Shown: positions 3,717 to 62,300 of the stretch, one piece after another | How positions within the stretch are numbered: the stretch's first letter is position 1 | Layout of the letters: the number at the start of each line of letters is the position of its first letter | Assembly: GCA_029934515.1 (NCBI GenBank) | Contig: JAOZMB010000001.1 | Span: 1-62,300 of the forward strand | DNA from: Bacteroidales bacterium | Lineage (GTDB): Bacteria; Bacteroidota; Bacteroidia; Bacteroidales; JAADGE01 | Direction: 5' to 3' | DNA length: 62,300 nucleotides | The notes under the pieces: generated by a model | What the model was told of the DNA's origin: nothing | The model's input: the letters and a program-made list of their open reading frames with translations, nothing else | Databases searched by the model: none | Translations under genes and position numbers: made by a program

Positions 3717-3774
3717 TTGATAATGAAAAAGTTTACTATCCAGAAGCTGTAAACAACCAGATAGTATAACTGTT

Positions 3775-6968: not shown

Positions 6969-6996
6969 TTTGAATTTACTCTTAATTTTATTTAAT

Positions 6997-39800: not shown

Positions 39801-40027
39801 TTGATTATAAACTTGGTAGCCGTTCTGCAATAGATTGGATACTTGACCAATACAAAGAGAAAAAACCGAGATACAAAACGATAAGAGAAAAATTTAACAC
39901 ATACAAATTTGCTGACTACAAAAATCATGTTATTGACTTAATACAAAGATTAACAACTGTTTCCGTAAAAACAATGGAAATAGTAAATCTGATGGAAGCC
40001 GAAGAACAGCATAATATAATTATTTAA
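36875..40027 (+). CDS. single-polypeptide restriction-modification enzyme (MmeI/type IIL-like N-terminal PD-ExK nuclease motif, gamma-class N6-adenine methyltransferase, type-ISP-like C-terminal specificity domain)
   Basis: N-terminal IPDGTV...(14 aa)...WESKD, a D...ExK nuclease motif. AdoMet motif ILDPATGTGTY. Catalytic motif IIGNPPYNANQ. The C-terminus FDYKLGSRSAIDWILDQYKEK...VIDLIQRLTTVSVKTMEIV is like type ISP C-terminal domains. No helicase domain is present. Confidence 0.75.
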   Translation: MSKQSITNYYNKLDQYKLYGGTGNESSIRRAFANLLEDYCIKKKLILVDELHLKNSTKIPDGTVRDALQQDWGHWESKDEKDILDDAIEKKFAIGYPQDNIIFENSKEIILIQKSEEVMRGSMRDSSFLNRILIEFTNYQHPEITNFHNAIEKFKQNVPDILEILRTMISEQAVKNPKFKKARKDFWKICKDSINSEISAFDIREMLIQHILTHEIFTTIFDDADFHRENNIAQQLQALVDTFFTRTIKKNTLSKIDTYYKTIKKAAAGISNHHEKQKFLKVIYENFYKSYNPKGADRLGIVYTPNEIVKFMIESTDYLLDKHFGKQLQDKNVEILDPATGTGTYITDIIEHIPTQYLEYKYKNEIHCNELAILPYYIANLNIEYTYMQKMQHYEPFNNIVFVDTLENFGFSYEGKQEDIFNFSIENLLRIKKQNKSKISVIIGNPPYNANQQNENDNNKNREYPEIDKRIKNTYVKYSTAQKTKVYDMYSRFYRWASDRIDKNGIIAFITNRSFIESRTFDGFRKIVEQEFDFVYIIDTQSDVRKNPKIAGTSHNVFGIQTGVAIMFLIKNNLDERIKANIRYYTLTDKMLKKEKLDWLSENPLKYIPFEIIKPDKYNNWLNIPDNDFDELLPIADKETKLAKNKVNEKAIFKLFSNGVVTARDEWVYDFDKKNLKSKVEFFINSFLFEKERWKKSNKKQKIADFLKRDIKFSDTLKKHLLKIAELEETLTYLQNLPPNGKRKKIKELKQKLLPYKDFRFKRNKIKINNYRPFIKQFYYAEKILSDRLTQNHYAIFGNELNKENKVIGIMGVGIDRKYFTIAVDKIIDLQFIPNGQSLPLYTYDKSGNRIENITDWGLEQFTNHYKTAKISKLDIFNYTYGVLNNPAYRKKYELNLKRELPRLPFYKDFYKWVNWGKKLTNLHINYEKIVKYKLQIIENENPKENPKAKLRRDKITNEIILDENTIIKGIPDIAFDYKLGSRSAIDWILDQYKEKKPRYKTIREKFNTYKFADYKNHVIDLIQRLTTVSVKTMEIVNLMEAEEQHNIII

Positions 40028-46195: not shown

Positions 46196-46237
46196 AATTA
46201 TAGATATTGAAAATAAACAATTATCAATTATTTATTA

Positions 46238-46379
46238 TGGCAGATGCATCAAAATATTAAAGTACTGAAAATCAAACAATTACTATTTTAAAAACATAAC
46301 AAATAGAAAATAGAAATTAAAAACTAACAAATAGAAACTAACCACTAACCACTAACCACTAACAAATAGCCACTAAAAA
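46238..46379 (-). repeat. composite repeat E2 (inverted orientation): core ATGGCAGATGCATCAAAATATTAAAGTACTGAAAATCAAAC followed by CTAACCA/CTAACAA heptamers
   Basis: The reverse complement gives TTAGTGG x3 heptamers plus the core TTTGATTTTCAGTACTTTAATATTTTGATGCATCTGCCAT. It fills the gap between the two caspase genes. Confidence 0.8.
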
Positions 46380-46382
46380 ACA

Positions 46383-48539
46383 TCAATTATTTATATTTCT
46401 TACAAAAATAAATTCTCCGTTTTGGTCTCCTGTATCATTAATAACTCGAAGCTGTGGCATATTATTAGTTTTACTTGTAACGTCTTCGTTTATTTCATTA
46501 AATAAATCGCTTGCTGATAAATATGGTCTTTTATTTCTAATTAAGGCATTGATAAAATATTCAAAAAAAACACTCTCATTTGGGACTGGTTTAAGTTCGG
46601 CACTTGTCAAAGCCTGACGGCTTTTTTTTGCATATTTTTTTTTGATATATATAGAGAGATGAGATTCTTTATATTCTGTGGAAGATTTATTTTTTTTTGC
46701 ATTTATACTATTACCTGAGTTTTGTTTATTTATGTTCCTAAATATACCACCGCTGTAGCAGGCATCATTAACTAATAAAGTGTGGAGTGAGTTAATTTTT
46801 TGTATATCGTCTCTTAATTGACTATAATATATATATTTGCTTGTTTTTTTATTATCTGCATCTGAGGGCAACCAATAACCTATTGCATTTTCTTGGTCAT
46901 ATGTTCCGTGTCCAGCATAAAATATTAAAAGATTGTCTTTTTCGGTAATTATTCTTTCTAGTTCGTTAAATTTATCAATAATATCTTCGCGTGTAGGATT
47001 AGATAATAACATTATATTTTTTTCCTTAAAATTATAATCTTTAATTAGAACATTTTTTAATCTTTCAGCATCTTCTATTGGTTTATTTTCCAGGTCTGGA
47101 ATGGAGTCATGTTCGTATTCGCTTATTGGTATCATTAGAACATAATTTTTCCCGATGCCAAGCAAATTTTTAGGTGCTGGATAGTTAGTAATAGAGAACT
47201 TTTTTCTTACAGAGTTTCCTCTTTTGTCTATAGCACGGACAACAAATATACTATCATCGTTGTCAATCCAAGCATTTGTAAAAATACTGTCATTATTTGA
47301 ACTATCTATAGACATTTTTTGATTATTTATAAATATTGAATCTATCTCATTTTCACTTGTTAGAAGCATACATACTTCAAATTTATTTTCAATAATTTTT
47401 CGAGGTTTTGTATTTCTTTGTATCATTTTTCTTGTATCTATATGTGCTGTTAATACAATATCTTTGATAGTCAATTCTCCACGGTCAATTTCTATAACAA
47501 TAATTTCGTATTCTGGTTTTACCTTTTTCCTTTTGAAAATATAGCGGTTCGTATTTTTAAAAATATAATTTTTGCCCGTAGCGGGCATAAAAATATTGGC
47601 ACTAATAATAGCCGCAGAGTATTCTCCAGTTAAAGCAAATAAAGCATCTCTGAAAATGGCTTTTTTTATATTGTTGCAAAAAAGCTCGGCTTCTGAACGA
47701 GGAACTGACACGTATATATTTGGAAAAAAATCAAAATCTATTTTAACTGTTTCACTATCCGAATCATACTTGGCACTTAAAATCTCGGAATCCAATATAG
47801 GTAAAAGCTTCTCGGATAATTTCTTTTGTGTTAAACTGTCTCGTCTATTGTCTATCTTATCGTTATATGTTCTTTTAAAATAATATTCGGTACTTTTAAA
47901 ATCGTCTTTTTTTAGCCAAACAGCCATATCATCGTTTACATATTCAGTAACTATTTTTTTCAATGGAAGTAATAATTTGTATATATCTATTAAATTATTA
48001 TGACTTAAAACAAGAAATTTACTGTTAGAACTGAAATCAATAGAAAAAATCTGACCACGACCTAAAGAAATAGTTTTAATACATTTAAAATTTTTATCTA
48101 TTATCTCATATATTTTTATTTCTTTGTTAGAAGAAAAAAGAAAAAAACGACCGTTAGGACTAAATTTAACAAATGAAATTTCTTTTTCATAATATTCAAA
48201 AGTTTTAATAAGTTCAAATTTATCATCGTTTTTACTATATATTTCAACATAATCGCTGCCGACAGCTAAAAAATTATTGTCTGGACTAAAACTAATACTA
48301 TAAATATGTTCGTCAAATTTAATAGTTTCAATAAGTTTAAAAGTAGCATCTATTATCTTATATATCTTAACTGTCTTATCTCGGGAACAAGTGGATAAAA
48401 ATTGACCGTCTTCACTGAAATTTGTGATAAAAACATCTTTGCTATGAGAATCAAGTGTTGTGTGAAATTTAATTCCTGATTGTGCAAATAAATAAATACT
48501 TATTAACAATAGCGGTAAAGTAGAAATAATTTTCTTCAT
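46383..48539 (-). CDS. secreted WD40-like repeat protein fused to a C-terminal caspase-like (peptidase C14) domain
   Basis: Signal peptide MKKIISTLPLLLISIYLFAQS. About four WD40-like blades (FSEDGQFLSTCSRDKTVKIYK, FSPDNNFLAVGS, FSPNGRFFLFSS, FSSNSKFLVLS). Caspase His in LIFYAGHG...GYWLPSDAD and Cys in LLVNDACYSGG. Confidence 0.8.
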   Translation of the reverse strand: MKKIISTLPLLLISIYLFAQSGIKFHTTLDSHSKDVFITNFSEDGQFLSTCSRDKTVKIYKIIDATFKLIETIKFDEHIYSISFSPDNNFLAVGSDYVEIYSKNDDKFELIKTFEYYEKEISFVKFSPNGRFFLFSSNKEIKIYEIIDKNFKCIKTISLGRGQIFSIDFSSNSKFLVLSHNNLIDIYKLLLPLKKIVTEYVNDDMAVWLKKDDFKSTEYYFKRTYNDKIDNRRDSLTQKKLSEKLLPILDSEILSAKYDSDSETVKIDFDFFPNIYVSVPRSEAELFCNNIKKAIFRDALFALTGEYSAAIISANIFMPATGKNYIFKNTNRYIFKRKKVKPEYEIIVIEIDRGELTIKDIVLTAHIDTRKMIQRNTKPRKIIENKFEVCMLLTSENEIDSIFINNQKMSIDSSNNDSIFTNAWIDNDDSIFVVRAIDKRGNSVRKKFSITNYPAPKNLLGIGKNYVLMIPISEYEHDSIPDLENKPIEDAERLKNVLIKDYNFKEKNIMLLSNPTREDIIDKFNELERIITEKDNLLIFYAGHGTYDQENAIGYWLPSDADNKKTSKYIYYSQLRDDIQKINSLHTLLVNDACYSGGIFRNINKQNSGNSINAKKNKSSTEYKESHLSIYIKKKYAKKSRQALTSAELKPVPNESVFFEYFINALIRNKRPYLSASDLFNEINEDVTSKTNNMPQLRVINDTGDQNGEFIFVRNINN

Positions 48540-48595
48540 AAGATTATTGATTATTAGTTATTAATTAATTTGATTAAAATTTATAAATATAATTG

Positions 48596-49423
48596 TCAAT
48601 AGATATAAAATTTTCCTAAATATACCTCTTCTCCGAATAGTTCCAACTTCCAATAATATAATCCATGTTTTAAAGTTTTCTTAGGAATTGTATGTCTTTC
48701 GTAAATTCCGTTTATAACATAATAAACGGAATTTTTGTTGAAAACAGTAAGCGTAACAACAGCATCGGTCTCCAAAATTTCCCAATTAAAGTTTATAGAT
48801 TCAAAAGAGTTAAAAATATAATCGTTCTCTGGAAAAACTTTATCAGAAGAACGGATAGAACCAAGAAAGTAATCAGATAAACGCTTCTCATAGTCAGGGT
48901 CTTTTCCTGAGATAAGAAATTTACAGGCTCTCTTAAATATGTTTTCTTTATTTGATTTTAGTTCTGCGTTTTCTTTCTCCAAGACTTTTTTATTTTTTAC
49001 AAGTTCTATATTCTTTTTTCTTATATCATGCAAGCCCGACAACAATTTTTTATTTTTTACGATTTGTGATTTGCCGTGTTTTATCTGTTCTTTCAATTTT
49101 TGGCTCTCTTCTGTATATTTTTTTTGAACAATATTATTGGTCAAAAATATTGATAAACATACAAATATTAAAATAGAAGCGGCATATCTTAAAACACGTC
49201 TTAAGTTAATATTATTTTTTTTTTTAATTGATAAAATTTTATTAACTGGAGACACATAATTTTGTGTATAAACATTCATTGTTGCGTTCATTTGCAGGAA
49301 GAATTTAAAATCATTTGCAAATGATTTGTCATTGTTCATAAAATTTTTAAGTGCAAAAGTTTCGGATTTTGTTAGACGGTCATTTATAAATTTCTCCGCG
49401 TAAAATACTATTTTTTTATTCAT
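48596..49423 (-). CDS. single-pass membrane protein with anti-sigma-factor-like N-terminus and coiled coil (275 aa)
   Basis: The N-terminal helical segment FINDRLTKSETFALKNFMNNDKSFANDFKFF resembles the cytoplasmic segment of Bacteroidota anti-sigma-like proteins. TM helix VLRYAASILIFVCLSIFL. The extracytoplasmic C-terminus ends GLYYWKLE. This is a weak call. Confidence 0.45.
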   Translation of the reverse strand: MNKKIVFYAEKFINDRLTKSETFALKNFMNNDKSFANDFKFFLQMNATMNVYTQNYVSPVNKILSIKKKNNINLRRVLRYAASILIFVCLSIFLTNNIVQKKYTEESQKLKEQIKHGKSQIVKNKKLLSGLHDIRKKNIELVKNKKVLEKENAELKSNKENIFKRACKFLISGKDPDYEKRLSDYFLGSIRSSDKVFPENDYIFNSFESINFNWEILETDAVVTLTVFNKNSVYYVINGIYERHTIPKKTLKHGLYYWKLELFGEEVYLGKFYIY

Positions 49424-49444
49424 AATTTTTTGTGTTTTGTAAGA

Positions 49445-49540
49445 TTTTAGTTTCTATTTGTTAGTGGTTAGTTGCTATTTATCTATTTTTTTATAGTAAT
49501 TCTTTGATTTTCAGCACTTAAATATTTTGATGCGTGCCAT
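49445..49540 (+). repeat. composite repeat E3: TTAGTTT/TTAGTGG heptamer-like tract plus core TTTGATTTTCAGCACTTAAATATTTTGATGCGTGCCAT
   Basis: The core aligns almost base-for-base with E2 (reverse complement) and E1. Confidence 0.8.
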
Positions 49541-49601
49541 ATTATTAGTAACTTTTGTAAAACTGTAAGAAGCAAAAACTAATTTATTATTTAACGATTA
49601 C

Positions 49602-50255
49602 TTATTTATCAAATTTAAATTTAACTTCATCGAATAATTTTTGTTTAAAAATTTGATTAAATTTATTTATACTATTCTTCTTAAAATTATAGAAAGGCGA
49701 CAGCAGTTCGTATAGCTTGTCATTATTCAATTTATCTATTCTTTTTGATTTTATACCGTTGTAAATTTTCACAAGAAAAATAAATTTCTTATAATCATGC
49801 TCTTTCAATTGACGAAAAACTGTTACTATAATTTTCATCAAACGGTCTCTTTCTATATATGAAAATTCATTATCAGATATACCAATTGCGGATAATTTTT
49901 TTGTATAAACATTAAGTTGTTTTGTGTAACTTACGAGTTGTTTTTTATATTCCCATGTTTTATATATGCATGATGTTTTAAAGAAACTTGATGTTGCTTT
50001 TTCGTTTCTGTAATTAAAATTGTCAGATAATATTTTTTCTGCAAAATACTCAAAAGAGAGCCAAAGTATTGTTTTAAGGTTACCTGTTTCAAATCCACTA
50101 CCGTAAGTTTTTATGATTATCTGCTTAAAAATTTCAATTTCTAATTTTCCTTTACTGTCTTCCAACAAACATATTATTTCAAAACTTTCATTTTTCTTTC
50201 CAGATAAAATCAAATCTATAGATTTTCGCCATGTATTATTTATTTCTTTTTTCAT
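49602..50255 (-). CDS. hypothetical protein (217 aa)
   Basis: ORF only, first gene of the minus-strand block. No convincing motif. Confidence 0.4.
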   Translation of the reverse strand: MKKEINNTWRKSIDLILSGKKNESFEIICLLEDSKGKLEIEIFKQIIIKTYGSGFETGNLKTILWLSFEYFAEKILSDNFNYRNEKATSSFFKTSCIYKTWEYKKQLVSYTKQLNVYTKKLSAIGISDNEFSYIERDRLMKIIVTVFRQLKEHDYKKFIFLVKIYNGIKSKRIDKLNNDKLYELLSPFYNFKKNSINKFNQIFKQKLFDEVKFKFDK

Positions 50256-50485
50256 ATTATTTATTGTGACTTTATTGTTTTTTTATAATAATCACACAAT
50301 TGACAATCATCTTATTAAAATAAATTGTCAAAAATAGTAAACTTTTCTTTACAAAAAAAACTAATCTATATTTTATAACTACTATAATTTGTGTTTGACC
50401 TATTTTCTATTGCTCGATAAAAGGAACACAGATTTTTGACATTATTTATTAAAGTATGTTTGCTATAAATACAATACAAAAAAGA

Positions 50486-50598
50486 CGAAAAAGTGAAAAA
50501 AAACGGAAAAATATTTTTTTTTTAATTTTTAATAAATTGGTTTTCAATTGTTTACAAACAAAAAAAAATAAAAAAAAGTTTTTTTTTTCACTTTTTCG
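50486..50598. repeat. inverted repeat CGAAAAAGTGAAAAAAAAC / GTTTTTTTTTTCACTTTTTCG flanking a 73-bp A/T-rich segment in the divergent intergenic region upstream of the giant gene
   Basis: Left arm 50486-50504, right arm 50578-50598. Eighteen consecutive complementary positions, after which the A/T runs differ in length. Confidence 0.6.
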
Positions 50599-50730
50599 GT
50601 ATTTCAGGATTGTATATAAGTAAGGCTGGTTGTTTTAAACAAAGATACTGTTTTTGTTTATTGTGCAAGTTACAATAATGAATACAAAAAAGAGTAATTT
50701 GTGTAAAAAATAGTCCATTCATACACTATT

Positions 50731-50763
50731 TTTGCAAAAAACAATGAACTATACATAAATTTG
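50731..50763 (+). promoter_or_regulatory. candidate Bacteroidota sigma-A promoter of the giant surface-protein gene (TTTG-21 nt-TAAATTTG)
   Basis: TTTG at 50731-50734, a 21-nt spacer, then TAAATTTG at 50756-50763. This fits the published Bacteroides -33/-7 consensus TTTG-N19-21-TAnnTTTG. It lies 52 nt upstream of the ATG at 50815. Confidence 0.45.
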
Positions 50764-50814
50764 TCTTGTAAAAATAAAAGTTATAACTAACCACTAATAA
50801 CTAACAATTCTATT

Positions 50815-53800
50815 ATGAAAAAATTTACTATTAAAATTCGTTTAAATTTAGGGTTTATAAAAAACTTGAAATTAAGTATTGCTGTTGTTTTTTTACTATT
50901 TAGTTTACAGCTTACGGCACAAGAAAAAAAAATGAAAGTTACACAACTCGGCTCGGACGAAATAACGGAAACAACACTTGTGGAAAGTATAATAGGATGT
51001 AAAAAGGATATGGATATTCAAAATGTCAAATTTACAGGCTCAAGAGCAGCAGCAGGAGTATTTAGCTACAGTGGAGATGGACTTGGTATTAAAAAAGGAA
51101 TTATTTTAAGCAATGGATATGTTAATAAAGCAGATCAATCACAGGGAGGTCATCCAGCTTCTTCTGATCTTAATCTTCATGGCGATGAAGACTTGAATCA
51201 GTATTATTCTGAAGATGAATCTACTAAAGATGCAACAGTTCTTGAATTTGATTTTATACCTACAACTGATTCAATTACTATTTCATTTATATATGCTTCA
51301 GAAGAATACGGAAGTAATCAAGGTTTAAGTGATGCTTTTGCAATATTCCTTAATGGTAATGAAAAGATTAATAATGTAGCATTTATTAATGAGATGGAGG
51401 GAGAAAAAGTTATTTCAAATACTACAATAAACAGCAGTATAAACCAAAATTATTACAATACAAATAATGGTGAAATTGACTTTGTATATGACGGTTATAC
51501 AAAATTAATAACAATTACTTTTGCTGTAAAAAAAGACGATACAAATCATATAAAAATTGTCATTGCTGATGGTAATGGCAAGGATCGTTCTTATGATTCT
51601 GCTGTTTTGTTAAAAGATATTACAGCTTTTGAGATTGAAAAAGATTTAACTTCTATTCCGGCTCTTCCTCATGTTTGTGAAGAAAGCGATAATATTGAAC
51701 TTACTATTGAAACTACAGGTTACGAGAACCTTGATTACCAATGGTATAAAGACGGTAATCAAATAATAGGAGCAACCTCATCAATATTAACAATTAGTAG
51801 AGAAATAGAAAATTCTGGATTTTACAAGTGTATGGTTTCAAGCTGTCGTGATGATAAATACAGTAATGATATTGAGGTAAAAATAGATAAACTTATTGAA
51901 GCCAATGCCGGAGATAATGATATAAATTGCGGAATAAAATATCAATTTTCAGGAAATAATCCTATTCAGGGTTATGGTGAATGGTCAAGTACAACTGCCG
52001 GTTTAACTTTTGATAATCTTTCATTGTATAATACGAGTGTTTTAAATCTACCGAACTTTCAAAATAATGTATATAACAAAGATTTTACTTTTATTTGGAC
52101 AATTACAAATGGTAAGTGCAAAGATTCTGACAGCATGATTTTAACTCGTTACAAAAAAATTAATGCTAATGCAGGTGACAGTACTGCTGGTATTTGTGCA
52201 AACGAATATCAATTTAATGGAAAAGAACACGATGCAGGTTCAGGTATTTGGACTTATGATGCGCTTAACAATTTAACTTTCGATAATATTTCATTACATA
52301 ATGCTACAGTTTCAGGTTTGCCAGATGATGAGTTTACCGCAAATTTTACATGGACAATTACAAACGGTCCATGTGAATCTTCTGATAATATGTTACTCAC
52401 AAGATACAAAGGCGTAACAGCCAATGCAGGTGACGATGCTCAAGTTTGCGATTCTGTTTATCAATTATCTGGAAACACACCAGAAACGGGATACGGAATA
52501 TGGACAACGAACGATAAGGAAATTATTTTTGATAATTCAAACTTGAACACAGCAACAGTTTCAAACCTTACCAATAATGATTATGTGAACTATATTGATT
52601 TTACGTGGACTGTAATAAACGGTGATTGTGAAAGTTCGGACACAATGACACTAACACGTTACAAAGTTATTGAAGCAGATGCTGGAGACGATGAAGATAT
52701 TTGCGGTACAATTTATACATTGAACGGAAACAACCCAGCACCTGGAACAGGAATTTGGACAACAAACACAAGCAATAGCGTAAGTTTTGACAACCTAACA
52801 AGTACAAGTGCAACTGCTTCTGGCATGGTAATAGATGATTGGGAAAGGGATTTTACTTTTACGTGGACGGTTACAAACGGACTCTGCGAAGACTCTGATA
52901 ATATGATTTTAACATGCCACAGAAATGTCGATGCAGATGCAGGAGACGATGCTGAGATTTGCAATAATTCAAGTTATCAATTATCAGCAAATACGCCCGA
53001 ACATGGAATCGGAACTTGGACAAGTAGCGATGCTGAAATTATATTTGATAATTCAAATTTAAATACTGCCGTAGCTTCAAACCTAACAAGTGGAAATGAT
53101 ATAAATAATATAACTTTTACGTGGACAATAGAATACGGAGGCTGTATAAATTCCAATACAATAAATTTAACACGTTATGAAATAATTCAAGCAACAGCTG
53201 GCGAAGATGATGGAGTTTGTGATTCAGATGAATATACATTTTCACAGGCAAACGATCCATCACCTGGCTATGGTGTTTGGACAAGTAACAGAAGCGGTCT
53301 AACATTTACTTATGCCTCAATGCACAATGCTTTAGTTTCGGGTTTCCCAAAAACTAATGGAACAGAAACTAAATTTACTTGGACAATTAAAAACGGTGTT
53401 TGTACTGATTCCGATGAAATGATTTTAACATCTTACGAAACAGTTGGCTCGCAGGTTATTGGTGACGATTATATTTTATGTAATTATAGTTGGTGTTATT
53501 TACGTGCCGATGACCCTTATCCTGGTAATGGATACTGGACAAGTGAACCATCTGGTATTACGTTTAACGCACCAAATAATTTTAAAACTATAGCTAATGG
53601 TTTACCAGAAGGCAATATTACTTTCACTTGGAATGTCCAAAACGGTGTTTGCGACCTTTATCAAGATAATATTATTATTACAAGATATGACCCTTATGCT
53701 GATGCTGGTGGACCTGATGATGTTTCGAATGATACAGAACATAATTTAATTGGAAATGAGCCAGAAAATAATCAAACAGGAAAATGGACTATTGCTTACG

Positions 53801-56800
53801 GACTGGATACTGTTTCAGGTGTTACATTCGATGACAACAGTTCTGCAAATACTTGGGCGCGTAATATTCCTAACGGAATACATACTTTTACTTGGACAAT
53901 TACCGAAGGTCCATGTAAAGAATCGGATAATATTCTTGTTGGTAAATATGTATCAATAAATACTGCTGTTACTGCTGTTAATAATCAGGATTGCAGTTCT
54001 AATATCATTGTTGAAAGTTCTGCACATTTTCGTCAACTTGAGTCTGTTTTATTAATTCAGATGCAGGGAGCAGAAATAGATAATACAAATAGTATAAACT
54101 ACGGAGATATTACAAACTATTACAATGCCGGTAATTATGAATTTCTTTATATCCCGCTTGGAGGTATTTCTGGAAACACTATAACTTTCAATAAATCAAT
54201 AAAAAACAATTACGATATTTCTGGAAATGTTCAGTTAATCAGAGTTTATCCGTTTGAAGATGTAGTTTTTTCAGATTCCGATATTGATGCTCCAGCTTGG
54301 GATGGTTCCACTGGCGGCGTACTTGCAATTAGTGCATTTGATACAATCACATTAAATGGAATTGATATAACAGCCGATGGAAAAGGTTTTAGAGGTGGTG
54401 TTGCTTCAACTATGAATCAAACAAGTTTTAACGATTATTTTTCTTTATTTAGTGATAATAATGCTGCCAGAAAAGGCGAAGGAATAGCTGGAACTTTTGC
54501 AGAAACAGAATACGAATGCGCCGCAGGAAAAAATGCCAACGGTGGAGGCGGAGGAAATGCTGGAAACAACGGCGGAGGAGGAGGAGGAAACGATGTATCT
54601 GGTGGCAATGGAGGTCTCGGCTCTGTTTTGGCGGCAATAGGAGGCAACGGATTGGAATATAATAATACTGATAATAAAATCTTTCTCGGAGGAGGAGGAG
54701 GAGCTGGATATAACGGAACATCAGGAGGTGCCGGAGGTGGAATTATAATTATGAGTAGTGGCTCAACAATCGAAGGAGGAGGAAATAAAATATCTGCAAA
54801 AGGAGAAAATGCTGAAAATACAAGCAACGGTGCAGGCGGCGGTGGCGCAGGTGGAACAATATTAATAAATACAACAACAATTGACAGTCTATCCACAGAA
54901 ATGCAAGGCGGTAACGGAGGCACAGGAAACGCAGGCGGTGGTGGCGGTGCAGGAGGAACTTTATGGTATTCAAATGCATTTCCTACAAATAATACAAATA
55001 CAGGAGGAACGGCAGACGGTTCAGGTGGCGCACAAAATGGAACAAATGGAACAGAAATAGACGGGTTAAATTTGGTTTTTAATGATTTAATGTCGGTAAA
55101 AATAACGCAACATCCAGAAGATTCTACAATTTGTGAAGGTGACAACGCAAGTTTTACAATTGATGCTGAATGTGAAAATTCTTTTCAGTGGCAGATATGC
55201 GAAGTAATTCAAGGATATTTTACTGATATCAGTGATAATGATATTTACTCAGGTACAGATACCAAGACTTTAACAATCACAAAGCCACTGCTGAGAATGA
55301 ACGGTTATGCATATCGTTGTGTTGCAACTCGCAGTAGTAACGGACATTATGCAGAAAGCAATTATGCAATTCTTAGAATAGATAAATTTATAGAAGCTGT
55401 AGCTGGTGAGGATAATGCTGTTTGTGCAGATGAATATCAATTTTCGGCTGAAATTCCAGAAGAAGGATACGGATTTTGGAGTAGCACAACAGACCCAGAT
55501 ATTGAATACAGTTCAAGTACTTACAATGCAACAGCTTCAAACCTAACTAGCGGAGGTGATGATTATATAAATATTATAAATTTTATATGGACAACCAGAA
55601 ACGGTGTTTGTACCGATACCGATGAAATGGTTTTAACTCGTTATGATGTAATTACAGCCGATGCTGGTGATGATAAAGAAATTTGCGATGCTGTAACTTA
55701 TCAGCTCTCCGGAAGCGACCCTTTGATAGGACAAGGTCTATGGACAGCTGTTAAAACTTATATTGATTTTAATGAAGAAAATGATAACAATGCAATAGTA
55801 TCTGGTTTAGTGGAAGATTATCCTGAAAAAAATTATATTCTTAAATGGACTGTTACAAACGGACTTTGTGTAGATTACGATGAAATGACTTTAACACGTT
55901 ACGAAACAATTACAGCAAATGCAAGCGAAGATGATGCTATTTGTGATACAACAATATATCAATTCTCTGCAATAGAACCGCGTGCAGGATATGGAACATG
56001 GACAACAACACAAAATAATATAAGTTATGATAATTCAAGTATTTATAATGCAACAGTTTCTGGTTTGCCAGAGATATATCCAAGTAACGAAACGATTTTT
56101 ACATGGACAACGCGTAATGGTGTTTGCACAGATAACGATGAAATAATTTTAAAACGTTACGAAACAATACAAGCTGATGCTGGAGGTAATGCTGAAGTTT
56201 GTGATTTAACAAATTATACATTAAACGCAGAAACTCCCGAACACGGTTCAGGAATGTGGACAGCAACAGAAAGTTACATAAATTTTGATAATCCTTCTTT
56301 GACAAATGCAACTGTTCAAGATTTATCGGATATTTTTTGGGAAAAAGATTTTAATTTAAAATGGACTGTTACAAATGGTGTGTGCAGTCATACTGATGAA
56401 ATGATTTTAACAAGGTACGAAACAGTTGATGCCAATGCTGGAGATAATGAAAATATTTGTAATAACACAACTTATGTCCTCGAAGGAAATGAACCCGTTT
56501 GCGGAAGCGGTATGTGGACAAGTGAACCAGGAATAACTTTTGATAACTCAAGTATTTATAATACAACTGCTTCAAATTTACCAGACGAAGAATTAATTAA
56601 TGAAGCAGCATTTGAATGGACAATTACAAACGGAGCATGTATTAGCTCAAGTACAATGATTCTCACACGTTACGAAAAAGTTAATGCTAAAGCCGGTAAC
56701 GATACTTCAATTTGTGATTTTACAGAATATCAATTATCTGCAACAGAGCCAGAAGCAGGCTACGGAACATGGACAACAGATTACAATTATATAACTTTTG

Positions 56801-59800
56801 ATAATAACTCAAGCCAACATACTTCAAATATTCCAGGAGCAATAGCTTCAAATTTAACAAACGGAGAGTCAATAAATAATATTATTATTACTTTTACATG
56901 GACAGTAACAAACGGGGCATGTATAGATTCTGAAGATATGATTTTAACTCGTAATGAAACTATCCTTGCCGATGCTGGAGAAGATGAATCGATTTGCGAT
57001 AGTACATATTATGAATTAAATGGGAACTACGGTAATGGGGTATGGACAAGTCCGAATGCAGATATTACATTTGACTATCCGAACTGGTACCAAGCTGTTG
57101 CTAACAATTTACCCGAAGGAAGCACAGATTTAATCTGGACAATCACAAACGGTGCTTGCGTAAATTCCAACACAACTGTAATAACAAGAGACATAACAAT
57201 AGAAGCTGATGCTGGAGGTCCAGATGAAATTTCAGGTGCAGAAATTTATAATTTAAACGGAAATACACCAGAACCTGGAACAGGATTATGGACGGCTTCA
57301 AATACATCAGTTGAAATTGCAACACCAAGTTTATATACAACTGTTGCAAGTAAAATTCCGCTTGGAATTAGTACACTTACATGGACGATAACAAATGGAG
57401 CATGTATTTCTTCTGACGATGTACTTATTGGAAGTTTTGATGTTGTTGATGCAGTTGTCAGCAATATTCAGTGTAATCATCTTACAGTTGACAATCTCTT
57501 TAATATTTCAGTAGAAGGTAATATACTTGGAGAATTTGAAGTAGGTGACCGTGTTTTATTAATTCAGATGAAAGGAGCCGAATTTGACACAACAAATACA
57601 AGCAATTACGGAAATATTACAAATGATAATCATGCTGGTAATTATGAATTTTTGGATATTACTGCTATTTCGGGAAACGATATTTATTTTGCTAAGGAGT
57701 TTGCAAAAGATTATGATGATATTCTTGGAAGTGTACAGTTGATAAAAGTTTTTGGATTCGATGATGTAAGATTCTCGGATAAAACAATTCAACCGCCAGA
57801 GTGGAATGGTTCAAAAGGTGGAGTTGTCGTAATTGAAGCTAATGGAACGGTTGAATTAAATATTGGAATAAATGCAGATGCAAAAGGTTTTAGAGGTGGT
57901 AAACATGAAATTATGACCTATTCAACCGATTTTAGTGGTTATTTCTCATCATTAGAGAACAGTACAGCAGCCATAAAAGGTGAAGGTATAACATATGATT
58001 TAGACAGAACAGACTACGAGTGTGCCGCAGGTAAAAATGTAAATGGAGGTGGAGGAGGAAATGCTGGAAACAATGGAGGTGCAGGAGGAGGAAATGCTGG
58101 AAACGGAGGAAACGGAGGAAGTTCTTTTTTAGCTGCAATAGGTGGAATTGAATTAACATATAACAATGAAGATAATAAAATTTTCTTGGGAGGTGCAGGA
58201 GGTGCAGGTCATAGCGACAACGTGAATGGAACAGATGGTGCAAACGGTGGAGGAATTGTAATTATACGTGCAAATGAAATTATTGGAATTAGCGAAATAG
58301 GAAGCACTATTTCAGCAAAAGGCGAAAATGCTGGAAATGCAAACGGAAACGGTGCAGGAGGAGGTGCAGGAGGTACTGTTTTATTAGAAGTAAATACAAT
58401 TTCGGATATATTAGTAAATGTCCCTGGCGGAAACGGAGGCTCGGCTACAGGAACGGCTGGTGCTGGTGGTGGAGGTGGTGGAGGTGCGGTTTGGTATTCA
58501 ACGGTATCACCTACAAATATTATAAATTCAATGGGAACGGCAGGAACAGATGAAAATCCTTCTATTGCTGTTCAAAACGGTACAAATGGAACAATTATTG
58601 ACAATTTGAATACGGTTCAGTGTTTTACTGATTTTTTATTAATAGAAGAACAACCGCATGATACTACAATTTGTCAAGGAAACAGTGCAGCTTTTGATAT
58701 TGTTGCATCATGTTACGACAGGTTAATTTGGCAGGTAAAAGAAAACGAATACTCCGGCTTTCGTAATATAGAAGAATATGAAGCTTTTTACAGCGGAATG
58801 ACAAGTGATACTTTAACAATAACAACGCCAGAATTATATATGAACGCTTATCAGTATCGCTGTATTGCATACAATATAGGTATTGAAAACGGAGAAGAAA
58901 TAAGCGATACAGTTTTGCTAAATATTGATAACGGTATTAATGTAAATGCTGGAGATGATTCTTTTATTTGTGATACTAAAGAATATCAATTCTCGGCTGA
59001 CCCGCCACTGTATGGATACGGATACTGGACGACAACAGATGAAAGTATAACTTTTGATAACAGAAGCTCTTATGATGCAACAGCTTCAAATCTTACTTCT
59101 GGAAATACAGAAAACGAAATGATTTTTACATGGACAGTTAGTAACGGGGTTTGTCGAGGTTCAGATACAATGACTATAAGACGTTATGAAACAATTATTG
59201 CAAGTGCCGGAGAAGATGCGAAAATTTGTGATAACACAAGATTTCAGCTTAACGGAAATGACTCTTTGTCTTTAGGACGTTGGGAAAATAATACAGATGT
59301 TGTCTTTGACAATGCAAGTAACACAACTTATGTAACTCTGCCAACAGACGATTTGGAAAAAGATTTTATTTTTACATGGACAATTATAAATGGTGAGTGT
59401 TCACATTCAGATGAAATGATTTTAACACGTTACGAAACTGTTGAAGCAGATGCCGGCAGCGATAATAAAATTTGCGATGACGATGAGTATCAATTATCAG
59501 CAAACGCGCCAGCACTTGGCTACGGAACTTGGACAAACCAAAACGGAGGAATTATTTTTGATAATTCAAATTTAAACACAGCAACAGCTACTAATTTAAC
59601 GCCAGATGTTTGGGAAAAAGATTATAATTTTATCTGGACAATTACAAATGGCGTATGTATTCATTCAAATACAATGCTTCTTACACGTTACGAAACTGTT
59701 GAGGCGTATGCCAGCGATGACGATGAAATTTGTGAACTATATCAATATACACTCAACGGAAACGAACCAGATTACGGAACAGGACTGTGGACAGAAATAA

Positions 59801-62300
59801 CATCACATGGAATAGAATTTACAGAGCAGAGTATTTTCAACACAACAGCAACAGGTTTACCGTCCGGAGAGGTATTAACAAATATGACTTTTGATTGGAC
59901 AATTACAAATGGAGTCTGTTCGCACTCAGATGAAATAAATTTAACACTTTATGAAACAATAATTGCTGATGCAGGAGTGGATACTTCGCTTTGCGATTTA
60001 ACAAATTATACATTATCAGGAAACAACCCAACACCTGGCACAGGAAAATGGACAGGTGAAGACGGAACTTTTAATAATAATACATTTTACGGTACCACAG
60101 TTTCAGGACTACCAGCAAACGAGTGGGAAAAAGATTTTGATTTTATCTGGACAATTACAAACGGCGTATGTCCTATAAATTCAGATACAATGACTATTAC
60201 ACGTTACAAAACAGTAAACGCAGAAACTGGCGGTAATGATAAAATTTGTGATACTTTACAATATCAACTTAACGGTAACGAACCAGATTACGGAACAGGA
60301 TTATGGACAACACAAATAGGAATAGGTTTTGTTAATCAAAGCATTTTCAACACAACAGCAAACAATTTGCCAAGCGAAGAACTTGAAGCTGATTTTAATT
60401 TTACATGGACAATTACAAATGGAGTCTGTGTTGATTCTGATGAAATGATTTTAACACGTTACGAAACAATAATTGCCAAGGCTGGCGATGATAATGAAAT
60501 TTGTGATACTTTACAATATCAACTCTCTGGCAACGAACCAGGAAATGGATACGGGTATTGGACGGCAACAGATAATGAAATAACTTATAATAATTCGAGT
60601 GTTTACAATGCAATTGCTGGAAGTCTTACAAACGAAGAACCAATTAATAATATGTTATTTAAGTGGACAACTCGAAACGGTGTTTGCACACATTCCGATG
60701 AAATGATTTTAACACGTTACAAAACGATTATTGCAGAAGTCGGCGAGGACGATAAAATTTGTGATACAACGGTTTATCAATTTTCGGGTAATGTTCCAGA
60801 GCCTGGTTACGGTGTTTGGTCTTCGGATACAGAGAATTTGATTTTTGATGATATTTCTTTATCAAATGCAACAGTTTCAAGTTTGACATCAGGAGGATGG
60901 GAAACAGATTTTAATTTTACATGGACAATTACAAATGGAATATGTAAAAGTTCAGATAGTATGTTATTAACAAGATACACAACAGAAACAGCAAATGCTG
61001 GTGATAATATTCAAATTTGCGATTTAACACAATATCAAATATCGGCTGTAACAACAACCGTTGGAGTAGGAAAATGGATATCAGAAAACAATGTAATAAT
61101 TTTAGAAAACCAGCCACCTATAAATGCTAATATTTCAAATATACCATCTGGAAATTTAGAAGAGAACTTTACTTTTGTTTGGATTGTTACAAACGGAGTA
61201 TGTGTTGACTCTTCAGAAATGATTTTAACAAGATACGAAACTATAACAGCTGAAGCTGGAGATAATGATGAAATTTGTAATTTAACGAATTATCAATTTA
61301 ATGGAAATAATCCCGAATCTGGTTATGGTGTATGGTCGTCTGTAACAGACGAAGTTACTTTTGATGATATTTCTTTATCAAACGCAACGGTATTAAATTT
61401 ACCAAATGATGAACTTAAAGAAGATTTTAATTTTATATGGACAATTACTAATGGTGTTTGTTCGCATTCCGATGAGATGGTTTTGACATCTTACAAAAAT
61501 ATCTTTGCCGATGCTGGAATAGATACTTTACTTTGTGATATTGCTTCAATTAATTTATACGGGAATGACCCATTCCCTGGTTCAGGAGTTTGGGAAGCTG
61601 ATAATTCGATTATTACAATACAAAATGATAATTTATACAATACAAATATCTCAGATATTCCACTTGGAGAAACAAATTTTAAATGGATAATTACAAATGG
61701 TGTTTGTCCATCGGATACAAGCTCTTTGATTTTAACAAGATACAAAACTATAACAGCAAATGCCAATGATGATGATGAAATTTGCAATTTAACAAATTAC
61801 CAATTTAATGGAAATAATCCAGCATCTGGTTATGGTGTGTGGACATCAAACACAAGCGGACTAACTTACAGTGCAAATGCTTCTTTATACAATACTGTTG
61901 TATCTGATTTGCCAGCTGGTAGCTGGGAACGGGATTTTATTTTTACGTGGACAATTAAAAACGGAACTTGCGAAAGTTCTGATGATATGTTATTAACAAG
62001 ATATGCAACAGAAATAGCAAAAGCTGGTGATGACGCACAAATTTGTGATACAACACAATATCAACTCTCAGCAGAGACTCCAGAAGCGGGAACAGGAATG
62101 TGGTCAACAAATATTCCACAAATAAATTTTGATAATCAAACGATTCCAGATGCAACAGCTTCAAATATACCTGATGGAAGTTTGGAACAGGATTTTACTT
62201 TTACGTGGACTGTTACAAACGGTGCTTGTTCTCATTCAGATGAAATGATTTTAACAAGATACAAAACTATAACAGCAAATGCCAATGATGATGATGAAAT
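50815..62300 (+). CDS. giant secreted repeat protein, 3'-truncated by the window (at least 3,828 codons): choice-of-anchor-L-like N-terminal domain, Ig-like modules, at least 29 copies of a ~85 aa Cys/Trp repeat, two Gly-rich modules. Probable cell-surface adhesin of the Bacteroidota T9SS-cargo type.
   Basis: I translated frame +1 codon by codon from the ATG at 50815 to nt 62298 without meeting a stop. It is not in the supplied track because no stop lies inside the window. The N-terminus MKKFTIKIRLNLGFIKNLKLSIAVVFLLFSLQLTAQ is signal-peptide-like. Confidence 0.9.
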   Translation, partial: MKKFTIKIRLNLGFIKNLKLSIAVVFLLFSLQLTAQEKKMKVTQLGSDEITETTLVESIIGCKKDMDIQNVKFTGSRAAAGVFSYSGDGLGIKKGIILSNGYVNKADQSQGGHPASSDLNLHGDEDLNQYYSEDESTKDATVLEFDFIPTTDSITISFIYASEEYGSNQGLSDAFAIFLNGNEKINNVAFINEMEGEKVISNTTINSSINQNYYNTNNGEIDFVYDGYTKLITITFAVKKDDTNHIKIVIADGNGKDRSYDSAVLLKDITAFEIEKDLTSIPALPHVCEESDNIELTIETTGYENLDYQWYKDGNQIIGATSSILTISREIENSGFYKCMVSSCRDDKYSNDIEVKIDKLIEANAGDNDINCGIKYQFSGNNPIQGYGEWSSTTAGLTFDNLSLYNTSVLNLPNFQNNVYNKDFTFIWTITNGKCKDSDSMILTRYKKINANAGDSTAGICANEYQFNGKEHDAGSGIWTYDALNNLTFDNISLHNATVSGLPDDEFTANFTWTITNGPCESSDNMLLTRYKGVTANAGDDAQVCDSVYQLSGNTPETGYGIWTTNDKEIIFDNSNLNTATVSNLTNNDYVNYIDFTWTVINGDCESSDTMTLTRYKVIEADAGDDEDICGTIYTLNGNNPAPGTGIWTTNTSNSVSFDNLTSTSATASGMVIDDWERDFTFTWTVTNGLCEDSDNMILTCHRNVDADAGDDAEICNNSSYQLSANTPEHGIGTWTSSDAEIIFDNSNLNTAVASNLTSGNDINNITFTWTIEYGGCINSNTINLTRYEIIQATAGEDDGVCDSDEYTFSQANDPSPGYGVWTSNRSGLTFTYASMHNALVSGFPKTNGTETKFTWTIKNGVCTDSDEMILTSYETVGSQVIGDDYILCNYSWCYLRADDPYPGNGYWTSEPSGITFNAPNNFKTIANGLPEGNITFTWNVQNGVCDLYQDNIIITRYDPYADAGGPDDVSNDTEHNLIGNEPENNQTGKWTIAYGLDTVSGVTFDDNSSANTWARNIPNGIHTFTWTITEGPCKESDNILVGKYVSINTAVTAVNNQDCSSNIIVESSAHFRQLESVLLIQMQGAEIDNTNSINYGDITNYYNAGNYEFLYIPLGGISGNTITFNKSIKNNYDISGNVQLIRVYPFEDVVFSDSDIDAPAWDGSTGGVLAISAFDTITLNGIDITADGKGFRGGVASTMNQTSFNDYFSLFSDNNAARKGEGIAGTFAETEYECAAGKNANGGGGGNAGNNGGGGGGNDVSGGNGGLGSVLAAIGGNGLEYNNTDNKIFLGGGGGAGYNGTSGGAGGGIIIMSSGSTIEGGGNKISAKGENAENTSNGAGGGGAGGTILINTTTIDSLSTEMQGGNGGTGNAGGGGGAGGTLWYSNAFPTNNTNTGGTADGSGGAQNGTNGTEIDGLNLVFNDLMSVKITQHPEDSTICEGDNASFTIDAECENSFQWQICEVIQGYFTDISDNDIYSGTDTKTLTITKPLLRMNGYAYRCVATRSSNGHYAESNYAILRIDKFIEAVAGEDNAVCADEYQFSAEIPEEGYGFWSSTTDPDIEYSSSTYNATASNLTSGGDDYINIINFIWTTRNGVCTDTDEMVLTRYDVITADAGDDKEICDAVTYQLSGSDPLIGQGLWTAVKTYIDFNEENDNNAIVSGLVEDYPEKNYILKWTVTNGLCVDYDEMTLTRYETITANASEDDAICDTTIYQFSAIEPRAGYGTWTTTQNNISYDNSSIYNATVSGLPEIYPSNETIFTWTTRNGVCTDNDEIILKRYETIQADAGGNAEVCDLTNYTLNAETPEHGSGMWTATESYINFDNPSLTNATVQDLSDIFWEKDFNLKWTVTNGVCSHTDEMILTRYETVDANAGDNENICNNTTYVLEGNEPVCGSGMWTSEPGITFDNSSIYNTTASNLPDEELINEAAFEWTITNGACISSSTMILTRYEKVNAKAGNDTSICDFTEYQLSATEPEAGYGTWTTDYNYITFDNNSSQHTSNIPGAIASNLTNGESINNIIITFTWTVTNGACIDSEDMILTRNETILADAGEDESICDSTYYELNGNYGNGVWTSPNADITFDYPNWYQAVANNLPEGSTDLIWTITNGACVNSNTTVITRDITIEADAGGPDEISGAEIYNLNGNTPEPGTGLWTASNTSVEIATPSLYTTVASKIPLGISTLTWTITNGACISSDDVLIGSFDVVDAVVSNIQCNHLTVDNLFNISVEGNILGEFEVGDRVLLIQMKGAEFDTTNTSNYGNITNDNHAGNYEFLDITAISGNDIYFAKEFAKDYDDILGSVQLIKVFGFDDVRFSDKTIQPPEWNGSKGGVVVIEANGTVELNIGINADAKGFRGGKHEIMTYSTDFSGYFSSLENSTAAIKGEGITYDLDRTDYECAAGKNVNGGGGGNAGNNGGAGGGNAGNGGNGGSSFLAAIGGIELTYNNEDNKIFLGGAGGAGHSDNVNGTDGANGGGIVIIRANEIIGISEIGSTISAKGENAGNANGNGAGGGAGGTVLLEVNTISDILVNVPGGNGGSATGTAGAGGGGGGGAVWYSTVSPTNIINSMGTAGTDENPSIAVQNGTNGTIIDNLNTVQCFTDFLLIEEQPHDTTICQGNSAAFDIVASCYDRLIWQVKENEYSGFRNIEEYEAFYSGMTSDTLTITTPELYMNAYQYRCIAYNIGIENGEEISDTVLLNIDNGINVNAGDDSFICDTKEYQFSADPPLYGYGYWTTTDESITFDNRSSYDATASNLTSGNTENEMIFTWTVSNGVCRGSDTMTIRRYETIIASAGEDAKICDNTRFQLNGNDSLSLGRWENNTDVVFDNASNTTYVTLPTDDLEKDFIFTWTIINGECSHSDEMILTRYETVEADAGSDNKICDDDEYQLSANAPALGYGTWTNQNGGIIFDNSNLNTATATNLTPDVWEKDYNFIWTITNGVCIHSNTMLLTRYETVEAYASDDDEICELYQYTLNGNEPDYGTGLWTEITSHGIEFTEQSIFNTTATGLPSGEVLTNMTFDWTITNGVCSHSDEINLTLYETIIADAGVDTSLCDLTNYTLSGNNPTPGTGKWTGEDGTFNNNTFYGTTVSGLPANEWEKDFDFIWTITNGVCPINSDTMTITRYKTVNAETGGNDKICDTLQYQLNGNEPDYGTGLWTTQIGIGFVNQSIFNTTANNLPSEELEADFNFTWTITNGVCVDSDEMILTRYETIIAKAGDDNEICDTLQYQLSGNEPGNGYGYWTATDNEITYNNSSVYNAIAGSLTNEEPINNMLFKWTTRNGVCTHSDEMILTRYKTIIAEVGEDDKICDTTVYQFSGNVPEPGYGVWSSDTENLIFDDISLSNATVSSLTSGGWETDFNFTWTITNGICKSSDSMLLTRYTTETANAGDNIQICDLTQYQISAVTTTVGVGKWISENNVIILENQPPINANISNIPSGNLEENFTFVWIVTNGVCVDSSEMILTRYETITAEAGDNDEICNLTNYQFNGNNPESGYGVWSSVTDEVTFDDISLSNATVLNLPNDELKEDFNFIWTITNGVCSHSDEMVLTSYKNIFADAGIDTLLCDIASINLYGNDPFPGSGVWEADNSIITIQNDNLYNTNISDIPLGETNFKWIITNGVCPSDTSSLILTRYKTITANANDDDEICNLTNYQFNGNNPASGYGVWTSNTSGLTYSANASLYNTVVSDLPAGSWERDFIFTWTIKNGTCESSDDMLLTRYATEIAKAGDDAQICDTTQYQLSAETPEAGTGMWSTNIPQINFDNQTIPDATASNIPDGSLEQDFTFTWTVTNGACSHSDEMILTRYKTITANANDDDE
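50932..51630 (+). other. choice-of-anchor-L-like N-terminal domain of the giant protein
   Basis: GIILSNG, HGDEDLN, DATVLEFDFIPTTDSITISFIYASEEYG, DAFAIFLNG, YDGYT and IVIADGNGKDRSYDSAVLL. This order of blocks matches my memory of the choice-of-anchor L family. Confidence 0.6.
51898..53955 (+). repeat. intragenic repeat array 1: 8 units of ~250-261 bp (~85 aa)
   Basis: Unit starts (A-x-A-G-x-D motif) near 51901, 52162, 52420, 52672, 52930, 53188, 53446 and 53695. Each unit ends ...F.WTI.NG.C..SD.M.LTRY. The last two units are degenerate. Confidence 0.85.
53956..55085 (+). other. Gly-rich module A of the giant protein (predicted solenoid/beta-helix-like, function unknown)
   Basis: VLLIQMQGAEIDNTNSINYGDITNYYNAGNYEF ... 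WDGSTGGVLAI ... ADGKGFRGG ... YECAAGKNANGGGGGNAGNNGGGGGGN ... KIFLGGGGGAGY ... ISAKGENAENTSNGAGGGGAGGTILI ... GGGGGAGGTLWYS. Confidence 0.7.
55090..55392 (+). other. Ig-like module following Gly-rich module A
   Basis: ITQHPEDSTICEGDNASFTIDAE...FQWQ...YSGTDTKTLTITKPLLRMNGYAYRCVA is the classic I-set-like pattern (C...W...Y.C). Similar modules are at 51646-51897 and 58621-58925. Confidence 0.65.
55393..57435 (+). repeat. intragenic repeat array 2: 8 units of ~85 aa
   Basis: Unit starts near 55393, 55654, 55912, 56170, 56428, 56683, 56965 and 57205. Confidence 0.85.
57436..58620 (+). other. Gly-rich module B of the giant protein (paralog of module A)
   Basis: VLLIQMKGAEFDTTNTSNYGNITNDNHAGNYEF ... 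WNGSKGGVVVI ... ADAKGFRGG ... YECAAGKNVNGGGGGNAGNNGGAGGGNAGNGGNGG ... KIFLGGAGGAGH ... ISAKGENAGNANGNGAGGGAGGTVLL ... GAGGGGGGGAVWYS. Confidence 0.7.
58930..62300 (+). repeat. intragenic repeat array 3: 13 complete units plus the start of a 14th, running off the window
   Basis: Unit starts near 58942, 59200, 59443, 59701, 59965, 60217, 60472, 60733, 60988, 61249, 61507, 61756, 62017 and 62275. Spacings are 243-264 bp. Confidence 0.85.

Follow-up and report, generated by a model that had tools for sequence, protein, structure and literature searches.

The question raised by the 3′ end of this stretch of DNA, the first 62,300 nucleotides (nt) of contig JAOZMB010000001.1 from the Bacteroidales bacterium assembly GCA_029934515.1 (called the window here), is what is encoded by a reading frame that opens at position 50815 and does not close before the last letter at 62300. 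Giant surface proteins exported by a type IX secretion system (T9SS) determine the attachment of Bacteroidota to particles, hosts and prey, and to our knowledge few of them have been characterized, with most of their length lacking domain annotation. The frame was brought to attention by an original prediction, made from the letters alone, in which it was read as the start of a gene for a secreted protein of nested repeats. The follow-up analysis described here shows that 50815–62300, a length of 11.5 kb, is the 5′ part of an intact, real gene for a protein of more than 3,828 residues, which is built of three units in series, each consisting of a head, an immunoglobulin (Ig)-like linker and a stalk of tandem Ig-like repeats. 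The favored reading of the product, to which a probability of roughly 0.7 is given, is that of a giant acidic surface fiber of Bacteroidota, exported by the T9SS and anchored in the outer membrane, which serves as a long adhesin.

As had been claimed at the outset, frame +1 is free of stop codons from the ATG at 50815 to the end of the window (3,828 codons by translation), and the closest in-frame stop 5′ of this ATG is a TAA at 50788, which makes the ATG at 50815 the earliest possible start. Given local base frequencies of A 0.36, T 0.29, G 0.20 and C 0.15, one stop in every ~12.5 codons would be expected, so that the probability of 3,828 codons without one is ~1e-138; the five remaining frames of the same region contain between 157 and 434 stops each. 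The open reading frame (ORF) is missing from the program-made ORF list because it never closes inside the window, which is the explanation that the original prediction had offered. The region has a G+C content of 35%, against ~30% for the whole window, and the encoded part of the protein is strongly acidic, with 527 Asp and Glu versus 162 Lys and Arg residues. The O-glycosylation sequon of Bacteroidota, D-S/T-[AILVMT], is not enriched in it (25 observed versus 20.6 ± 4.2 expected).

Stretches of at least 100 nt shared by the repeat copies are 60–82% identical in DNA, and 91% is reached only by short stretches of 33 nt; short reads should therefore place the copies uniquely, and an assembly collapse of near-identical copies is of no concern. 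Compared pairwise as protein, the repeats are 23–62% identical (mean 43%), and they are best regarded as old duplications that have been kept under selection.

The architecture of the protein, the coordinates of which are collected in Table 1, begins with a signal-peptide-like N-terminus, judged by inspection and hydropathy, with the cleavage site placed by eye. The head that follows scores far above the cutoff of 27 bits of the choice-of-anchor L model NF038133, with 149.3 bits in the whole protein and 155.4 bits in the N-terminal fragment, and covers profile positions 4–216 of 219. Both elements, as well as the Ig-like module behind the head, had been proposed from the letters and are borne out. 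For the rest of the protein, a hidden Markov model (HMM) of the repeat, for which 14 copies were chosen by hand, detects 29 complete repeats of 79–94 residues in three unbroken arrays of 8, 8 and 13 copies, in agreement with the earlier count of 8, 8 and at least 13. The arrays are parted by two glycine (Gly)-rich modules of ~375–390 residues, each of which is followed by an Ig-like domain of ~90 residues, and the three Ig-like linkers can be aligned and have in common a signature of Cys, Trp and Tyr-x-Cys. The protein is, in other words, a series of three head–Ig–stalk units: a choice-of-anchor L domain, an Ig domain and 8 repeats in the first; a Gly-rich module, an Ig domain and 8 repeats in the second; and a Gly-rich module, an Ig domain and at least 13 repeats in the third.

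Table 1. Features of the giant gene and its upstream region, with window positions, strand and evidence
Feature	Residues	Positions	Strand	Evidence
AT-rich intergenic region 5′ of the giant gene		50256..50814	+	TAnnTTTG candidate Bacteroidota -7 promoter motifs at 50727 and 50756
Giant ORF, 5′ part of gene, still open at the window end	3,828 codons	50815..62300	+	no stop; upstream TAA at 50788
Signal-peptide-like N-terminus: basic n-region, hydrophobic core at residues 19-32, then LTA/QE	1-36	50815..50922	+	Kyte-Doolittle hydropathy up to 2.49
Head 1, choice-of-anchor L domain	56-268	50980..51618	+	NCBIfam NF038133, E 1e-43 to 1e-45, 149-155 bits vs cutoff 27
Ig-like linker 1	282-357	51658..51885	+	Pfam Ig_3 at residues 282-342, 37 bits vs cutoff 30; aligns with linkers 2 and 3
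Stalk A, 8 tandem Ig-like repeats of 82-89 residues	361-1049	51895..53961	+	self-built HMM, alignment
Head 2, Gly-rich module 1	1050 to ~1425	53962..55089	+	NF047640 E 1e-41, 143 bits, below cutoff 275; local HMM match at residues 1048-1422
Ig-like linker 2	1430-1525	55102..55389	+	three-linker alignment
Stalk B, 8 tandem Ig-like repeats	1526-2212	55390..57450	+	self-built HMM, alignment
Head 3, Gly-rich module 2	2213-2605	57451..58629	+	NF047640 E 1.7e-53, 182 bits, below cutoff 275; AlphaFold2 model
Ig-like linker 3	2606-2707	58630..58935	+	linker alignment; structural matches of the linker in the Gly-module model are Ig domains
Stalk C, 13 tandem Ig-like repeats	2708-3820	58936..62274	+	self-built HMM, alignment, AlphaFold2 model of copy C6
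Start of a further repeat, ITANANDDDE, same opening as copy C12, cut by the window end		62275..62300	+	translation compared with repeat alignment

The starts of the blocks are spaced 1,165 and 1,182 residues apart, and the comparison of the DNA with itself gives a unit period of 255–261 nt and a block period of 3,501–3,540 nt, which fits the period of about 3.5 kb in the original prediction. Repeat A8, the last of stalk A, and repeat B8, the last of stalk B, match each other better than any other copy (46% identity) and are both without the first Cys, and the two Gly-rich modules are 54% identical. These resemblances therefore point to the duplication of the whole stalk-plus-head block in what would have been an ancient event. 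In a six-frame scan of the window, neither the repeat nor the heads nor a T9SS domain occurred anywhere else.

In the alignment of the 29 copies, the repeat has a length of 86–88 residues, with G29, W31, W65, G70 and C72 being invariant, and the consensus pattern given earlier is matched. No model for it was obtained in an NCBIfam scan of the whole protein, and the 29 repeats scanned singly against Pfam (one release older than the precomputed annotations, so that a newer repeat model is possible) returned only scattered matches at E ≥ 0.008, each in one or two repeats, with no PKD-, HYR- or Big-type model that fits; a word-indexed protein search with the repeat alignment gave no matches. The fold was modeled from the 29-copy alignment by AlphaFold2, which renders copy C6 as a seven-strand all-β domain with a mean predicted local distance difference test score (pLDDT) of 93.1. 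The top structural match of this model in Foldseek is the base of grappling hook protein A (GhpA) in the cryogenic electron microscopy structure 9fly_A, with a template modeling (TM) score of 0.70 and 30% identity, followed by the Ig domains of titin, cadherin and Robo. The repeat is thus predicted by the model to fold as an Ig-like sandwich, as the original prediction had suspected.

In the Protein Data Bank (PDB), GhpA is also the sole sequence matched by the repeat profile (E 1.9e-115); 11 copies, at GhpA residues 4759–5717, match it strongly, and the stem repeats of GhpA match it weakly, at 7 bits or less. Profile comparison in addition links the repeat remotely to residues 525–597 of a CHU_C protein annotated with PF13585 and PF19081 (P0124; 92% probability, E 6.8e-7), the Ig-like domain of which has the motif A.AG.D..IC ... 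NG.C..SD.M.LT in common with the repeat of the window; the latter nevertheless forms a subfamily of its own, which is longer and has two conserved Trp residues.

When 1.84 billion representative proteins were searched exhaustively with the repeat profile, the repeat was found in 6,277 proteins at E ≤ 1e-3, in 3,543 at E ≤ 1e-10 and in 1,432 at E ≤ 1e-30. Many of these proteins have lengths of 2,000–7,079 residues, and the number of copies reaches 73. In the top 150, a T9SS C-terminal domain is present in 118, being type-B-like in 88 and type-A-like in 30, and most of the remaining 32 stop inside a repeat and are therefore incomplete. The assignment to type A or B was made by proxy HMMs built from C-termini annotated with PF13585 or PF18962; a Pfam check of 10 C-termini returned CHU_C for four out of four and Por_Secre_tail for three out of three, with the three negatives absent or below threshold. 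The size of this family and its association with T9SS domains therefore show the repeat to be a typical constituent of giant T9SS cargo and no marker of grappling hooks in particular.

As to the Gly-rich modules, the cutoff of the NCBIfam model NF047640 (gliding_AgmC_N) is exceeded by the whole protein, with 313.7 bits versus 275, but this score is reached only as the sum of two copies, the single modules scoring 143.3 and 182.1 bits. Because neither module alone reaches 275 bits, they are classed here as domains homologous to gliding_AgmC_N and not as AgmC equivalogs; no literature on AgmC was found. At E ≤ 1e-5, module 2 has more than 1,900 homologues, and those among the matches listed are all 356–866 residues in length. 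They are 30–47% identical to the module, most of them carry PF13585 or PF18962, often together with PKD domains, and some cover 94% of the query and hence include the Ig-like domain that follows. Among the best 120 of the more than 1,900 relatives, the module lies at most 60 residues from the N-terminus, directly after the signal peptide, in 112, and a T9SS domain is found at the C-terminus in 101, with none having two copies and none an internal arrangement of the module as seen here. Since the module usually sits at the tip of a short T9SS cargo, the comparison suggests that it is a putative binding or enzymatic head.

The AlphaFold2 model of Gly-rich module 2 has a pLDDT of 86.9 and a predicted TM score of 0.84, and its long Gly-rich stretches are confidently placed yet almost without assigned helix or strand. 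Comparison of the module with solved structures by sequence or profile gave matches only to T9SS domains that had been brought in by the aligned homologues. Phage tailspikes were considered as fold relatives and rejected, the TM score of ~0.14 in the fold search being uninformative. Among predicted viral structures, the model (57451–58935) matches a ‘PA14 domain-containing protein’ of Bathycoccus sp. RCC716 virus 1 (TM 0.53, E 5e-21) and, as a further match, a protein of Ostreococcus mediterraneus virus 2, and it may be that algal viruses (prasinoviruses) hold relatives of this Gly-rich surface module.

The known system that is closest to the giant protein in its repeats is GhpA of Aureispira sp. 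CCB-QB1, a protein of 5,898 residues, which consists of a Sec signal, an N-terminal hook module (residues 26–1402, adhesin-like and Antigen I/II-like), 52 Ig-like repeats as well as a T9SS sorting domain at the C-terminus; seven GhpA protomers align into a 240-nm hook that is anchored in the outer membrane, and homologues of PorP and PorE (ghpB and ghpC) are encoded downstream of ghpA (bioRxiv 10.1101/2024.01.29.577165). Like GhpA (structures 9flp and 9fly), the protein of the window is a giant Bacteroidota protein in which a Sec signal and a distinct N-terminal head precede long arrays of Ig-like domains, and its repeat is of one sequence family with GhpA residues 4759–5717, the base proximal to the outer membrane. 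It differs from GhpA in that its head is a choice-of-anchor L domain instead of the Antigen I/II-like hook, in that it has two internal Gly-rich heads, which are not reported for GhpA, and in the weak match to the GhpA stem repeats.

Two families of smaller proteins are related to it through their heads. In the small T9SS cargo proteins with a Gly-rich module, which are 450–870 amino acids long, the module is as a rule N-terminal, and it is single and is followed by a short stalk, whereas here it is internal and occurs twice, between arrays of at least 8 repeats. The choice-of-anchor L proteins (NF038133; PF26766 in newer Pfam), whose domain is found here well above cutoff, are in Bacteroidota typically ~760 amino acids long and end in CHU_C. 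SprB, the gliding adhesin of Flavobacterium johnsoniae, is a giant repetitive surface filament of 6,497 amino acids exported by the T9SS (type B) (bioRxiv 10.1101/2024.01.29.577165) and is, like the product considered here, a giant repetitive Bacteroidota surface protein. The SprB repeat PF13573, however, is not detected in the latter.

In the favored reading, the protein would be carried across the inner membrane by Sec and across the outer membrane by the T9SS, its C-terminal part beyond the window carrying a T9SS sorting domain, which would more likely be of type B (CHU_C) than of type A because the former outnumbers the latter by 88 to 30 among the repeat relatives. It would stay attached to the outer membrane by its C-terminus, perhaps via a partner of the PorP type, with the choice-of-anchor L head at the distal tip of an extended acidic fiber and the two Gly-rich heads at about one-third and two-thirds along the part encoded in the window. 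By the measure of GhpA, in which 5,898 residues span 240 nm, this part would be ~130–160 nm long, and the fiber would act as an adhesin of long reach. Export by the T9SS is considered most likely because both of the other module families are found with T9SS domains in the great majority of cases (118 of 150 for the repeat and 101 of 120 for the Gly-rich module); the function as an adhesin and the orientation of the fiber are inferred by analogy. The claim of the original prediction that this is a secreted surface adhesin, probably a T9SS cargo, is in this way upheld indirectly, through GhpA and the two counts, the sorting domain itself lying beyond the window.

Several observations weigh against this reading. 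The C-terminus is outside the window, so that no T9SS sorting domain is seen, and anchors that do not belong to the T9SS are also in use among choice-of-anchor L proteins. The only T9SS-flavored gene of the window, at 6970–9102 (+), encodes a 710-residue OmpA-family protein resembling the CHU_0125 type and the PorE type, and its product falls far below the curated cutoffs (198 versus 620 bits for the CHU_0125 type and 181 versus 600 for the PorE type). No PorP/SprF or other T9SS gene adjoins the upstream side of the giant gene, and the six-frame scan of the window found no other cargo with a T9SS domain. In addition, a close orthologue was not found in GTDB representative genomes, JGI metagenomes or plasmids, the architecture thus resting on one assembly.

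The alternatives differ in what they make of the same parts. The protein could be a true counterpart of GhpA, the protomers of which would lie side by side in a stiff, hollow grappling hook for catching prey cells or flagella in contact-dependent predation (ixotrophy). That the one solved relative of the repeat is GhpA (E 1.9e-115; TM 0.70), and that both proteins are giant, carry a Sec signal and combine Ig repeats with a distinct N-terminal head, speaks for such a hook; the strong match is nevertheless limited to the 11 membrane-proximal repeats of GhpA, with 7 bits or less for the stem, and in the PDB search with the whole protein the alignment to GhpA was confined to the repeat region, the head here being a choice-of-anchor L domain. 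Its occurrence in 6,277 representative proteins deprives the repeat of diagnostic value for hooks, internal Gly-rich modules have not been reported in GhpA, and neither type VI secretion system (T6SS) genes nor PorP/PorE neighbors are seen in the window, all of which makes a grappling hook unlikely. Slightly less probable again is a mobile gliding adhesin like SprB, which the gliding machinery would move over the surface of the cell. The giant size, the repetitive build and the Bacteroidota origin would suit it, as would the predominance of type-B-like sorting domains among the repeat relatives (88 of 150) and the match of the Gly-rich module to a model named after a myxobacterial gliding protein. 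Against it, no SprB repeat (PF13573) was detected at E ≤ 0.1 in the whole protein or at E ≤ 10 in single repeats, each Gly-rich module stays below the AgmC_N cutoff (143 and 182 versus 275 bits) and the AgmC name in NCBIfam is an annotation only, and gliding genes (gld, spr) are not seen in the window.

A more general objection concerns the route of export, as the protein could leave the cell without the T9SS and either use another anchor or be released as a soluble or matrix protein. Choice-of-anchor L domains do occur with PEP-CTERM, OmpA-like and Hint partners as well as with T9SS partners, and the position of the C-terminus outside the window leaves room for any of these; the host being a member of the Bacteroidota and the overwhelming association of the other two module families with T9SS domains place this route at about the same low level as the gliding adhesin. 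It could finally be held that the frame is a pseudogene remnant or an assembly chimera and not one functional gene, given that it is found in only one assembly, that giant repeat genes often break assemblies and that an independent contig ends at 50740, just upstream of the gene. This is highly improbable in view of 3,828 codons without a stop in a region of 35% G+C, of repeat copies that are only 60–82% identical in DNA and can be placed uniquely, and of structural residues that are kept in all 29 copies. The T9SS-exported, membrane-anchored adhesin fiber is therefore retained as the preferred reading.

As to the host, the carboxyltransferase encoded at 4583–6130 is 82–83% identical to proteins of uncultured Bacteroidia and 76–79% identical to those of many Flavobacteriales, Cytophagales and Sphingobacteriales, and by this measure of protein identity the host is placed among the uncultured Bacteroidota of the class Bacteroidia. 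The AT-rich region upstream of the giant gene contains two candidate promoter motifs (Table 1), which constitute weak evidence for a promoter at a frequency of the TAnnTTTG motif of 1.17 per kb in the window. The same region has an inverted repeat at 50466–50618, with 38-nt arms that are 82% complementary, 77 nt apart and share an 18-nt perfect core (CGAAAAAGTGAAAAAAAA). An invertible promoter at this position was considered and found no support, as the independent contig L001 has the same orientation and a recombinase gene was not found nearby. This contig, from Logan SRR21545385, covers 49565–50740 at 100% identity and ends 75 bases 5′ of the start codon of the giant gene; together with a contig from ENA ERZ23491059 (L002), it is 100% identical to the window within 49540–50740.

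On the opposite strand, the giant gene has a pair of caspase-like genes and a pair of orphan ORFs as its neighbors; beyond them lie genes for a lipase and an amino-acid carrier and accD. No T9SS, gliding or T6SS genes were seen in this vicinity. The caspase-like (Peptidase_C14) pair lies within 44270–50255 (-), directly upstream of the giant gene. One member, at 46383–48539 (-), has N-terminal WD40 repeats and a weak match to an ‘EACC1-associated’ caspase model, the other, at 44270–46195 (-), carries DUF4384, and the orphan ORFs at 48596–49423 and 49602–50255 (-) adjoin them; the caspase-like genes and orphan ORFs of 44270–50255 may form a defense or cell-death cluster. Elsewhere in the window, a Type IIG restriction–modification gene at 3–1532 (+) is cut by the left end, with ~536 residues missing; it is open from base 3, has an NPPY motif and matches positions 537–1064 of 1066 of the PADLOC profile REase_MTase_IIG, from which at least 1.6 kb of further sequence is expected on the left. 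Proteins of the window are on record from NCBI, Logan and ENA assemblies, and on the longest contig with them, of 72,412 bp, at most ~8.5 kb (~2,830 codons) would then be left for the part of the giant gene beyond 62300. The second restriction–modification gene, at 36875–40027 (+), encodes a complete Type ISP/Type IIG enzyme of 1,050 residues (Type_ISP_C 261 bits, PADLOC REase_MTase_IIG 853 bits). The gene at 11325–16886 (-) encodes a bacterial α-2-macroglobulin of 1,853 residues with bMG3, MG2, bMG5, bMG6, bait region, TED and bMG10.

Turning back to the giant protein, every one of its parts is familiar, and it is their combination that appears to be new among the sequences searched. The Gly-rich module is absent from all of the top 150 repeat-bearing proteins, and only one of them has a choice-of-anchor L head. 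The nearest relatives of the N-terminus are 39% identical over 45% of the query, and PF13585 (CHU_C) is present in 36 and PF18962 in 4 of the 108 choice-of-anchor L relatives by table count. No match was found for the last 352 residues of the window protein in GTDB representative genomes or JGI metagenomes, for the Gly-rich module in JGI metagenomes, or, by tblastn with five repeats, in plasmids.

On a tentative and rather doubtful note, the protein may be a multi-headed fiber that arose by the end-to-end fusion of three units which are normally separate small T9SS cargo proteins, or it may be cleaved after export into three head–stalk pieces. A three-unit, multi-headed arrangement of this kind was not seen in the top 150 repeat-bearing proteins or in the best 120 relatives of the Gly-rich module. 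If the protein is such a fiber, three different or redundant heads would be spaced ~35–40 nm apart along a filament of more than 130 nm.

Giant repeat proteins of a similar kind are common, and the gene alone opens no new field. What it brings together are two large module families that are without a model in the Pfam release scanned and yet have confident structure predictions, namely the Ig repeat of the GhpA-base type, with 6,277 proteins, and the Gly-rich head, with more than 1,900 matches. In this protein, heads that normally sit at the tip of a small cargo are placed inside a long stalk, and, if this head-inside-stalk layout is real and functional, it suggests that the fusion of cassettes would be a simple route to new binding specificities.

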